Assembly (NCBI GenBank): GCA_049424145.1
Contig: JBMSSC010000061.1
Span: forward strand, 1-15,342
Source: Bdellovibrionia bacterium
GTDB lineage: Bacteria; Bdellovibrionota; UBA1018
DNA length: 15,342 nt
Direction: 5' to 3'
The notes beneath the pieces are model-generated. The model ran no database searches, was not told where the DNA came from, and saw only the letters and a list, made by a program, of their open reading frames with translations. Position 1 is the stretch's first letter. Each line of letters starts with the position of its first letter. The translations under genes and the position numbers were made by a program. Shown here piece after piece: positions 1 to 15,342 of the stretch.

Positions 1-39
1 TCTGATCTGTTCAAGAATATTTGCCAGAAGGCGGCTTGA
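1..39 (+). CDS. 3' end of a truncated ORF (...SDLFKNICQKAA*), possibly TnpB or a TnpB derivative
   Basis: Frame 1 is open from base 1 to TGA at 37-39, directly upstream of the IS200/IS605-like right end. Only 12 codons are visible, so identity rests on context alone. Confidence 0.3.
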   Translation, partial: SDLFKNICQKAA

Positions 40-209
40 ACGTGAAAGAGAAGACTGGAGTCCAAAATTTAGACTGTCTCTCGGAGACACTGTCGAACTG
101 CGGTGGGTAATGACCATAGCGGTGTAACTCCTGAAAGTTTGTTCAGGAGCGATTCGGACATGAATCGCCTTCGGGGAATCTTCGGCGTTCACGCCGGAGA
201 GGATGTCAA
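1..209 (+). mobile_element. Right (3') end of an IS200/IS605-family element, truncated at the window edge
   Basis: GGAATC-TTCGGCG-TTCA-CGCCGGA-GAGGATGTCAA at 175-209: GAAT (176-179), a 9-bp subterminal hairpin (179-187/192-200) and terminal TCAA (206-209). This matches the IS608-type right-end layout (guide GAAT, cleavage site TCAA). Confidence 0.75.
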
Positions 210-230
210 CCATGGACGCTAACTTTAGCA
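40..230 (+). ncRNA. Putative TnpB omegaRNA/reRNA (scaffold ending at 209, guide about 210-229)
   Basis: Serial hairpins TGTCTC/GAGACA (75-89), CTCCTGAA/TTCAGGAG (128-149), GCGATTC/GAATCGC (149-168) and the right-end hairpin (179-200). In TnpB systems the omegaRNA is read across the right end into flanking DNA. The 5' boundary is uncertain. Confidence 0.6.
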
Positions 231-335
231 GAGATTTTTTTTTACCGAAGAAAAAGATGAACCGATGGGGAAAACGGGCCACCCTAAGCCAACCTGGGGT
301 TTGAGCAGCAACTCGAGAGAAAAAATCGGATGCAG

Positions 336-377
336 AAAAAAAACCGGGGTGAAATCGGTTGCCCCGAGATCACCCCG
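336..377 (-). terminator. Intrinsic terminator of the foldase gene
   Basis: Minus-strand stem CGGGGTGA/TCACCCCG with inner TCGG/CCGA pairing, followed by 8 U, about 35 nt downstream of the stop at 411. Confidence 0.85.
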
Positions 378-410
378 AACGAAGGAAAATAAGTTCCTCT
401 TAAAAATCGA

Positions 411-7189: not shown

Positions 7190-7654
7190 TTATCGAGAAA
7201 GAAACTCAAAATACTCTTCAGGAATATCATCAAACTCAGCATCGCCTCCGCACTTATTGCACTTTAAAAGGGGGATCTTAAACTTCATTTTTTTAATGTC
7301 TTCGCACCTAAAAAGCCCCAATAATTCGGCCTGGCAATTTCTGCAATTAAAAGGAACAAAAATCGACTCCACCAATCCATTACCGCTGAAGTTCGAAATC
7401 AAATTCAGTTGCTCCACGATCGGAGGAGAACACTCAAAAAATCGAAGCTTTGTTCCCTTACTCTGGCAACTTTGAAAGTACTTAATCCAACTTTTAACAC
7501 CTACGGAATTAATCCGACTGATTTCTTTACAATAAAGGTCCATGTTTTGAGGGGGAACGCCGATCTCCTTCTCAAAAACCACATTTTCCTCAATGGACCC
7601 GATCAGCCGAACCACTAGCGTATCGCCTTTTTTTTCTTTAATTACATTAAACAC
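7190..7654 (-). CDS. STAS-like (anti-anti-sigma-like) protein with C-terminal CxxC...CxxC zinc ribbon, copy A
   Basis: LVVRLIGSIEE and RINSVGV (cf. SpoIIAA FMDSSG); CRNC and CNKC. Likely start GTG 7654 (GGAG SD, aligns with the paralog); ORF track gives 7666. Confidence 0.75.
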   Translation of the reverse strand: MFNVIKEKKGDTLVVRLIGSIEENVVFEKEIGVPPQNMDLYCKEISRINSVGVKSWIKYFQSCQSKGTKLRFFECSPPIVEQLNLISNFSGNGLVESIFVPFNCRNCQAELLGLFRCEDIKKMKFKIPLLKCNKCGGDAEFDDIPEEYFEFLSR

Positions 7655-7728
7655 AACGTGCTCCATTTTGAAAAATTTTTCCTAAAATTATAATTTAATT
7701 ATATTTAATATTAAAAACACCAATCAAC

Positions 7729-8199
7729 TTATTTTTTTCTAAAAAGGAAACTAAAGTATTTTTCAGGTACATCATCAAACTCCGCCTCCCCAGAACATTT
7801 TTTACATTTCATCTTAGGAATTTTTGAACCACTTTTTTGAATTTCATTGGATTGAAATAAAGCTAAAAACTCGGCGTGGCATTTCTTACAAACGAAAGGA
7901 ACAAAAAGAGACTCCACTGTTCCATGACTGATAAAATTAGAAATCAAATTCATCTGATCCACGACGCTCGGGGAGCACTCAAAAAATCGAAGCCTTGTTT
8001 TTGTACTTTGGCATTTTTGAAAGTACTTAATCCAGCTTCGAACTCCATCAGAATTGATTCGAGACACTTCTTTGCAGTAAATATCCAGCGCCGCAGGAGG
8101 AGAACCTAATTCACGCTCAAACCCTGCATTTTCCTCAATCGCTCCAATGAGTCGAACCACCAGGGTATCACCCTGCTGCTTTTTTATGATCTGAAGCAC
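7729..8199 (-). CDS. STAS-like protein with C-terminal zinc ribbon, copy B
   Basis: Gapless paralog of copy A (99/154 identical by hand count); RINSDGV, CKKC twice. GTG start at 8199 or 8202 after AGAGGGGG. Confidence 0.75.
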   Translation of the reverse strand: MLQIIKKQQGDTLVVRLIGAIEENAGFERELGSPPAALDIYCKEVSRINSDGVRSWIKYFQKCQSTKTRLRFFECSPSVVDQMNLISNFISHGTVESLFVPFVCKKCHAEFLALFQSNEIQKSGSKIPKMKCKKCSGEAEFDDVPEKYFSFLFRKK

Positions 8200-8215
8200 C
8201 ACTTCCCCCTCTTTT

Positions 8216-14378: not shown

Positions 14379-15308
14379 ATGTCGCAGTCAAAAGCATTTC
14401 GGATTCTCATTCTGCCCTCAGGTGGCGCAACTGGAATCATTCCAGCAGCTCTTCTAGCAGCCTTGGAGCAAAAGACGGGTCGACCCACCCATCTGCTTTT
14501 TGATGAAATCTGGTGTTCTTCAATTGGATCCGTCATTGCAGCCCTCTTAACCCACCCCGGATTTAAACGCCATTCGCACTCGCCCCTGAGTGCAGAAGAG
14601 GTAACTCATTTTCTAATATCAATTTTCTCAAGCTGCAGGTCCGCCCTGAGGATCCGTGAAACCCTGCGCAGGGCTTGGCCCCATCTCGCAGATCCTCAGC
14701 TAAAAGACACCTTGATTCCAATGAAGATTCTAGCTGCAGAGGTAACCAAGCGATGGGGTCCCTGGCCCAAAGCCACCCAGCTTAAAACCTTTAGCACCCA
14801 GGAGACCCCACAAGTGAACCTACTGGATGCCGTTAGCGCCTCATGCACGGTATTCCCGTTTCACTGGAAACTCACACAGGTTCACTCCTTAACATCTCCT
14901 CATGGTTTGTACCTGGATGCGGGATGCGAGGTCTGCACGGAAAGTTGCATGAACCCCTTCGCAGTGTTTGGGCCTACTTTGGAAGCCAAGGCGCGGGAGC
15001 TCCCCATCTCCCTCTATTTTTTTAGTAACGGATGGGTAAGGTGGGATGAAACCCATAGACTCCACAGTGGGGCACACCCAGTTCGCCTTTTCAATCTTGA
15101 TACGTCGCTGGAGTCAATTTGGAAGAAGTGGAAGAAAACCACTCGATTAGGCCGAGTGATGAGGCCTGTGAATCACCCGCGTATCCTCCAGAACCTGACC
15201 GGAGCAGGAGCCCTACCCCCCTCGTTGCTCATCGAACACGCACAAGGACTCACAAGTGCCCAGGCTTTTCGTCAAGTCGTAGATTCCCTCTTATCCAATC
15301 CGCCGTAA
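14379..15308 (+). CDS. Patatin-like phospholipase family protein (divergent motifs)
   Basis: RILILPSGGATGI, LEQKTGRP..LLFDEI, CSSIGS, AVSASC and YLDAG; starts 4 nt after the upstream stop. Confidence 0.82.
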   Translation: MSQSKAFRILILPSGGATGIIPAALLAALEQKTGRPTHLLFDEIWCSSIGSVIAALLTHPGFKRHSHSPLSAEEVTHFLISIFSSCRSALRIRETLRRAWPHLADPQLKDTLIPMKILAAEVTKRWGPWPKATQLKTFSTQETPQVNLLDAVSASCTVFPFHWKLTQVHSLTSPHGLYLDAGCEVCTESCMNPFAVFGPTLEAKARELPISLYFFSNGWVRWDETHRLHSGAHPVRLFNLDTSLESIWKKWKKTTRLGRVMRPVNHPRILQNLTGAGALPPSLLIEHAQGLTSAQAFRQVVDSLLSNPP

Positions 15309-15330
15309 AACTCGCCCGTTCAGGGGCGAG
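15307..15330. terminator. Hairpin after the patatin stop (possible terminator; short U-tract only on the minus strand)
   Basis: AAAA-CTCGCCC-GTTCAG-GGGCGAG. Confidence 0.55.
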
Positions 15331-15342
15331 ATATAAGGCGTC

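Follow-up and report, generated by a model that had tools for sequence, protein, structure and literature searches.

Gene-less carriers of omegaRNA are already known among the IS200/IS605 elements. The accessible text of two reports describes protein-less, PATE-like elements with an omegaRNA in G. stearothermophilus (10.1101/2023.03.14.532601) and stand-alone omegaRNAs (PMC10691335). These resemble the element of this study in their IS605-type ends, the lack of a gene, the many copies, the omegaRNA at the right end and the need for TnpA and TnpB in trans. The same two sources, within that text, also describe restoration of IS605 elements by recombination after the empty site is cut, and PATEs that encode omegaRNAs for use in trans. 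Compared with the PATE-like elements, the present element has in addition about 250 nt of covarying structure and a boxA-like motif before a 60-nt core, and none of the tnpB elements searched showed this leader. The enlarged leader is what is new here. A literature search found no description of this leader RNA; figures and preprint supplements, which lay outside its scope, may show PATE RNAs with similar leaders.

The omegaRNA of ISDra2 TnpB is similar in that a pseudoknot beside the guide arises from pairing between the 3' end of the scaffold and the first-stem loop, and in its TCAA end and a right-end hairpin that doubles as an RNA stem (PMC10097598, accessible text). The pseudoknot loop is at -53 to -49 in the present element and at -106 to -102 in ISDra2. 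The 5' extension of the ISDra2 RNA is tnpB coding sequence and is dispensable, whereas in the present element it is non-coding and conserved (same text). Group A IStrons, i.e., CdISt1 and relatives, also have a long structured RNA between an IS605 left end and the omegaRNA, a T-rich target such as TTTAT, and ORF-less variants; they end in TCAG, and 58% sit in genes, according to the accessible part of PMC4227781.

The right end and its copies

The window, i.e., the whole stretch of DNA that was analysed, is 15,342 nt long and represents positions 1–15342 of contig JBMSSC010000061.1 (C61) in assembly GCA_049424145.1 (G000). Window position 1 is the first base of the contig and thus a contig break; the sequence to the left is unreadable in C61, and other copies were used instead. 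A previous reading made from the sequence alone had proposed an IS200/IS605 right end with a TnpB omegaRNA scaffold at positions 40–209. The hairpins named there are located by direct check at 75–89, 128–149, 149–168 and 179–200, and the short motifs at 169–174 (cUUCGg), 176–179 (GAAT), 157–161 (GACAT), 203–207 (ATGTC) and 206–209 (TCAA). The dense hairpin run is real: positions 40–209 fold at -62.1 kcal/mol (z = -3.4), a value equalled by 0 of 200 shuffled sequences. The start at position 40 was wrong, however, as helices at 9–41 and others beyond the contig start are part of the structure.

Right ends of the IS608 type have a GAAT guide and a TCAA cleavage site. A BLAST search of window positions 1–400 against G000 finds 16 further copies with 87–100% identity and four divergent ones. 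By motif count there are 17 young right ends in G000 (window copy included), and for 14 of these the contig ends no more than 252 bases away. These 17 near-identical ends share one boundary at TCAA 209, where similarity stops sharply, and the flanks differ in 17 of 17 cases, which bears out the assignment to an IS200/IS605 right end and the boundary proposed for it. TCAA was found by sequence in 16 of the 17 young copies, and 17 of 17 end in TCAA at the boundary. IS605-type subterminal hairpins are present at both element ends, and there are no terminal inverted repeats. Insertion is 3' of a fixed T-rich tetramer with no target duplication, and the 3' flank is variable. G000 has 29 left ends of two IS605 types, 24 after TTAT and three after TGAT; 20 of the 29 represent the ORF-less family and nine are of a tnpA-adjacent type. 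A search of the assembly for TTAT or TGAT followed by the 14-nt flank found no target elsewhere for any of the 17 guides.

The previous reading had placed a partner protein to the left of the window. The window copy would then be the right end of an ordinary tnpB element with its gene just beyond the contig start; the contig break does hide this copy's own left part, and positions 150–209 match tnpB 3' ends. A comparison with other copies argues strongly against such a gene. A complete copy, G000:C70:11455–11863, is 409 bp long, with about 230 bp of non-coding sequence between the left-end hairpin and the right end, and window positions 1–209 are 94–97% identical to copies with the non-coding left part. 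Copies on contigs C114 and C62 extend leftward into the same non-coding segment as C70, while contig-end copies that start at the left end enter the segment from the opposite side; the C168 copy begins at the left end and reaches a 17-base stretch that is identical to the window start. A single 202-nt contig from the likely source run covers the element middle at a depth of 64, compared with 6–7 for the flank contigs, and no joint is listed for it. A model of positions 1–149 gives no more than 9 bits on cognate tnpB loci, and at 26 loci with tnpB, iscB or tnpA genes its only match is a known copy end. The copies that continue leftward (C70, C114, C62, three in genome G086 and three in two phage contigs) show a non-coding segment and are all without tnpB; in those with an assembled left part, a left end lies about 100–200 bp off. 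A tnpB gene directly to the left is very improbable.

Complete ORF-less copies are the C70 copy, three copies in G086, and two long and one short copy in the phage contigs. The copies are multiple and dispersed, with no protein gene inside the element. Ends, copies and gene absence are directly supported. The window piece is almost certainly an ORF-less IS605 derivative. The entire element probably represents a non-autonomous, PATE-like IS200/IS605 element of about 409 bp, with a stand-alone TnpB guide RNA and an enlarged leader. The internal segment was also considered as decayed tnpA/tnpB coding sequence, and this was rejected: there is no codon-position bias, no family match and no model match on tnpA/tnpB loci. 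A short likeness to a tnpA stop region adjoins the left end, as seen by eye only. A minimal element of 87 bp, in which the left end is fused to the right-end hairpin via shared letters, is found at G000:C121:3466–3552 (L018).

The minus-strand frame (1–282 in the window, 137 codons across C70) might represent a small protein gene, as no stop interrupts it across the whole element, or most of it, in C70, C114 and two phage copies. Its dN/dS of 0.7–1.0 is like that of other frames, however, and stops or frameshifts are present in G086, C27, C2 and the short phage copy. There is no Pfam or NCBIfam match and one PHROG match with an E value of 0.24. The six matches among 5.8 billion protein clusters have 1–2 members each and are read as gene calls on further element copies. 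A gene on this strand is hardly credible, and the frame is no conserved protein.

The element was found in four of 116 genomes of the order, G000 included, all from one family and representing four genera, by DNA searches together with a covariance model built on its middle region. The three full copies in G086 are approximately 74% alike, and G009 has a short, truncated copy. The copy in G005 (G005:C4:714297–714752, L151) has a 197-bp insert between hairpin strands; this insert matches a host gene at a distance of 2 kb. A fragment of an IS110 transposase stands where the left end is expected, i.e., the left part has been replaced. A DNA search of 401 genomes of the phylum added one 30-base match and nothing more, and the middle-region model gave no match beyond G000 in a 150-genome phylum sample. 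An exact 17-base pattern matched 116 stretches of genome contigs, and none of the 80 examined resembled the element; metagenome pattern scans gave zero matches, and plasmid and phage BLAST gave end matches of 30–46 bases only. Four loci from a viral scan (L259, L263, L265 and L284) were chance matches and were dropped. Since many genomes are incomplete and repeats are often unassembled, absence here means not found in those searched.

Secondary structure of the enlarged RNA

A covarying structure of approximately 310 nt is present on the + strand. Window positions 1–149 belong to it, and its start is about 100 nt left of the window. The features are as follows, in window coordinates.

1..209, + strand: right-hand 209 bp of the ~409-bp ORF-less IS200/IS605 element (element positions 201–409; left 200 bp beyond the contig start); 95% identical to 201–409 of G000:C70:11455–11863
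-101 to -12, + strand: domain A
-12 to 64, + strand: domain B; 5' strand begins ~12 nt left of the window (RNAalifold, 11 copies)
1..64, + strand: leader domain B, 3' part, a long interrupted hairpin; stem 9–15/35–41, inner 23–25/30–32, outer helix with 52–56, closing helix to 59–64 (RNAalifold, 11 copies)
72..149, + strand: hairpins C, D and E
72..94, + strand: leader hairpin C (75–89 of the previous reading); two-sided change in 5/5 inner pairs
97..123, + strand: leader hairpin D, absent from the previous reading; 97–101/119–123, inner 106–108/113–115; two-sided change in 3/5 outer pairs
128..149, + strand: leader hairpin E; 96.7% paired, two-sided change in 2/8 pairs
150..209, + strand: TnpB omegaRNA-type core; stem 150–155/162–167, short stem 168–176, GAAT, right-end hairpin, pseudoknot strand, TCAA
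157..161, + strand: pseudoknot loop strand GACAT, partner 203–207
176..200, + strand: GAAT guide (176–179; role taken from the IS608 rule) and subterminal right-end hairpin (179–200) for Y1 TnpA; two-sided change in 6/9 hairpin pairs
203..209, + strand: pseudoknot 3' strand ATGTC and cleavage tetramer TCAA (boundary alignment; covariation)
210..229, + strand: flank, presumed guide of the window copy (~16–20 nt); differs in all 17 copies

The guide-adjacent, TnpB-type pseudoknot 157–161/203–207 was predicted previously and is upheld by covariation. A comparison of 15 copies shows 71 of 75 cells paired, with 15 cells changed on both sides; the variants include GACAT/ATGTC, GATGT/ACATC and GATAC/GTATC, among others. 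None of 500 shuffles was as high on percent paired or on covariation score, and 65 of 500 were as high on the number of pairs. An alternative pairing of 86–89 with 204–207, offered in the same reading, is rejected because only 33 of 44 cells are paired, compared with 53 of 55 for the loop version in the same 11 copies. The UUCG loop is not conserved, i.e., the same short stem bears different loops in other lineages.

Similar two-sided changes are found throughout the RNA. They occur in 17 of 39 pairs in region 97–209, and in seven of 18 pairs in domain A, a 90-nt hairpin domain to the left of domain B that is wholly missing in short copies. In domains B to E, taken from 14 nt left of the window to position 149 (165 columns), 94.6% of cells are paired and 19 of 49 pairs show two-sided change, with 0 of 500 shuffles as high. 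In each region the covariation score was reached by 0 of 500 shuffles, and slid controls fell to 28–61% paired; these values are to be read in the context of structures that were derived from the same sequences, and of copies that represent only about 6–8 related lineages. The covariation is directly supported and would be the same for RNA or single-stranded DNA. The pseudoknot has changed in step among lineages that are 70–80% alike and all without tnpB, which points to RNA selection after gene loss.

The leader of approximately 250 nt matches no family catalogued in Rfam. The search, with the HEARO model included, does give one weak match, to HgcC (positions 86–222, 23.5 bits against a gathering score of 50), and nothing at or above a gathering score. 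The likeness to HgcC (RF00062), and to the archaeal sotRNAs and PATE-derived RNAs, comes from the right-end hairpin and a GAGGA..GUCA tail (PMC4615843, accessible text); the upstream domains are unrelated.

The leader also contains short motifs that resemble P4, P7 and the S element of a group I core. As they are in the right order, the element was tested as a decayed IStron with a group I intron core as its leader. Helices like P4, P5 and P7 with a bulged A are predicted, and a motif chain built from true introns starts at the proposed register in six of nine copies. The tests themselves argue against an intron. The Rfam model RF00028 matches 18 of 20 phage control loci (38–104 bits) and no element copy, and an HMM of 19 intron cores, run without a positive control, shows no match on eight copies. 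Chain scores are 8–25 bits compared with 26–90 bits for 72 intron loci, and 0.4–62% of genome bins score as high; the element model in turn gives less than 8 bits on 41 intron loci. P3 shows no two-sided change, and its strands have other pairing partners. Flanks are in open frames for only five of 17 right ends and six of 20 left ends, compared with about 67% of random TTAT sites (1005/1468 and 966/1469), so there is no sign of splicing rescue. In comparison with the Group A IStrons, the element is thus without a group I intron by three tests, avoids open frames and terminates in TCAA and not in TCAG (PMC4227781, accessible part). Descent from an IStron is very unlikely. A loose group I motif descriptor was dropped after it had matched dozens of random sites.

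A second gene-less repeat family is present in G000. It is about 400 bp, ends in TTCA and has variable flanks, e.g., G000:C6:35676–36017 (L327), with further copies on C84, C47, C33, C26 and C94 and two more on C6. Its sequence shows TTGCCT-17-TAAAAG, a boxA-like motif, a domain A-like hairpin and then different domains, and it has a weak Rfam match to Transposase-2 (25 bits, E 0.065). Domain A-like hairpins are also found behind promoter-like sites near contig ends in two other genomes, G108:C281:11227–11306 (L314) and G088:C8:102204–102282 (L315). No IS605 left end was recognised at these two loci, and their downstream sequence is unlike both G000 families. Since domain A heads the second G000 family as well as the G108 and G088 loci, it looks like a shared module.

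The TnpB-type core and putative helper genes

Only positions 150–209 resemble the ends of tnpB elements. The same layout is found at tnpB 3' ends in G000, G005, G085 and G086. The tnpB genes of the bacterial family end in codons for LRFGRESL or LRVGRDSL, and this DNA forms a stem and pseudoknot loop like that at 150–167. In the tnpB-type ends, the stem and loop precede a second stem that is longer, then GGGAATC, the right-end hairpin and GGACGTCAA, and both pseudoknot strands have changed together; the ORF-less core is without the longer second stem. Since the last tnpB codons encode the 150–167-like stem, the scaffold in the parent element overlaps the gene end, as in ISDra2. The previous proposal of a scaffold wholly downstream of the stop codon is meaningless in an ORF-less element, and in the tnpB-bearing relatives the equivalent of 150–167 falls inside the last codons of the gene. 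The 60-nt core is about half of the 116-nt ISDra2 scaffold, and would be useful if active. An IscB/HEARO reading was rejected: G000 has no RRXRR match, there is no Rfam match, and three iscB loci gave no model match.

The leader was not found before intact tnpB genes, under strict filters, in 116 genomes of the order, 127 genomes of the class (domain A model) and 150 genomes of the phylum sample. In G000 there are five TnpB-domain matches, all broken or partial as assembled, three of which belong to a family with other ends, and there is no intact cognate tnpB in the assembly. The five Y1 tnpA matches are likewise each partial or broken as assembled, and four adjoin a similar left end. The two phage contigs show no TnpB-domain match. 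In addition, 12 near-identical right ends of the tnpB type lie at contig ends in G000, along with nine tnpA-type left ends after TTAT, several of these at contig breaks. The shortest G000 contig is 2028 bp, so a collapsed IS605 of less than 2 kb would be absent from the assembly. The contig-end fragments point to a second, companion IS605 of G000 as the putative helper, and we infer that it is intact.

A left end of this second, tnpA-type IS605, one of the nine, is in the window itself at 15295–15342, directly after TTAT, and is truncated where the contig stops; its body (tnpA, tnpB) was probably collapsed as a repeat and so left out of the assembly. At G000:C114:8178–8249 and G000:C168:4123–4177, tnpB-type right ends directly adjoin the left-end sequence of ORF-less copies, which suggests insertion of the companion IS605 into the left end of the mini-element. 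In G005 a cognate-type tnpB of a tnpA-tnpB element (G005:C1:324500–326200, L267) is interrupted a few dozen codons from its start. The long insert at this point contains a reverse-transcriptase ORF and is probably a group II intron. Contigs C157, C128 and C60 of G000 (L001–L003) carry a separate, broken TnpB family whose C-terminal tail is long and basic and whose right end differs from the TCAA type.

Promoter-like sites, the boxA-like motif and proposed function

Promoter-like sequences are found just inside the left end, as TTGACA/TTAACA-17-TATTTT in the G086 copies and TTGACA-17-TATT in the short copies. TGCTAAT is at the same register in C27, C2 and C48. The young G000 family has a weak promoter match only, and a scan finds none at the register in C70 and none in the window. 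A promoter-like site in C70 that overlaps window positions 1–20 is not conserved and was dismissed. Sequencing runs of RNA gave a 278-nt contig (X7) and a 151-nt contig (X20) inside the element; these carry no strand or end information and may be DNA. The match of a further run, X4, is confined to the flank.

A boxA-like motif, GATCTTTGAAA/GTTCTTTGAAA, opens domain A at 7–10 nt after the promoter register. It is found behind the promoter-like site in G086, the young G000 family and the long phage copies; it is degenerate in C27, C48 and C130, gone together with domain A in the short copies, and predicted to be paired. The rRNA leaders and spacers of G005, a related genome, carry GATCTTTGACAA; the rRNA operon of G000 is unassembled. 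The B. subtilis boxA, which binds NusB, is AUGAUCUUUGAAA, and the likeness to an rRNA-leader boxA consists of GAUCUUUGAAA/GUUCUUUGAAA a few bases after the promoter, where the rrn leaders of the related genome carry GAUCUUUGACAA (PMC13753749, accessible text). Only the motif is common, however. An rRNA leader as the source of domain A was rejected: the domain A model has no real match in two G005 rRNA operons, with a best score of 15.6 bits on the opposite strand. The motif was noticed after the fact, and the chances that it is functional appear even.

It is also conceivable that only the DNA ends matter, i.e., that the folds are relics, structures of the single-stranded DNA intermediate or a decoy for TnpA, and that TnpB ignores the RNA. 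No intact cognate tnpB is assembled, the contigs from RNA runs do not prove transcription, and a decoy role has been proposed for archaeal PATE RNAs (PMC4615843, accessible text). On the other hand, TnpB reads the pseudoknot as a feature of the RNA (PMC10097598, accessible text), this pseudoknot covaries among gene-less lineages, and a promoter register is kept before the structure. An element of DNA ends alone is considered improbable.

The features described are consistent instead with an element whose RNA is used by TnpB in trans, which is judged reasonably likely. Mobilisation, transcription, TnpB use and boxA function are inferred steps in the following model. Y1 TnpA made elsewhere, most likely by the companion IS605, would excise and insert the mini-element as single-stranded DNA. 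A promoter just inside the left end would drive transcription across TCAA and on into the flank, to give an RNA of about 330 nt. The last 60 nt, with about 16–20 nt of flank, would load TnpB in trans, most likely from the second IS605, which has the same TTAT target. The TnpB complex may then cut the empty site after excision, and recombination would restore the element. The leader of about 250 nt, opening with the boxA-like motif, may replace the translated tnpB mRNA and guard the RNA from termination and decay before TnpB loading.

This addresses a general question, i.e., how a guide RNA that is not translated can be produced and persist when it has no tnpB mRNA of its own; here a conserved, covarying leader replaces the gene. 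If the leader raises guide levels, this would explain the persistence of mini-elements, and it would represent a natural expression cassette for compact TnpB editors. If it does nothing, the element is an ordinary PATE.

The enlarged RNA could, beyond a protective leader, serve a different partner, such as another RNA-guided protein, or have an activity of its own in self-processing or protein recruitment. This would fit a structure of about 250 nt that has no counterpart in tnpB elements or match in Rfam, is kept in four genera and in phages and shows invariant paired and unpaired motifs; domain A in addition stands at the head of the gene-less TTCA family of G000 and of two loci from other genera. 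However, the 3' core clearly belongs to the TnpB type, and the hosts are rich in TnpB-type elements with the same target. Short copies do without domain A, and the 87-bp copy consists of ends only. No nuclease gene was seen beside any element copy, and no candidate partner gene recurs. A different partner or separate activity is therefore unlikely.

An extended form of this reading also has only a small chance of being correct. The leader would be an RNA module in its own right, common to unrelated gene-less IS605 families, that recruits host rRNA antitermination through boxA and has domains that bind a partner or process the RNA. The elements would then form a phage-carried, family-wide pool of enlarged guides for an RNA-guided protein, TnpB-like or not, whose gene lies elsewhere. 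This would parallel the transition from omegaRNA to a tracr-like RNA that is expressed separately.

Elsewhere in the window, positions 7190–7666 and 7729–8202 contain two neighbouring minus-strand genes, paralogues of about 157 aa in which CxxC pairs are seen by eye close to the C-terminus. The two genes adjoin a 324-aa gene with a kinase-like tail and look like a local duplication in a signalling cluster.
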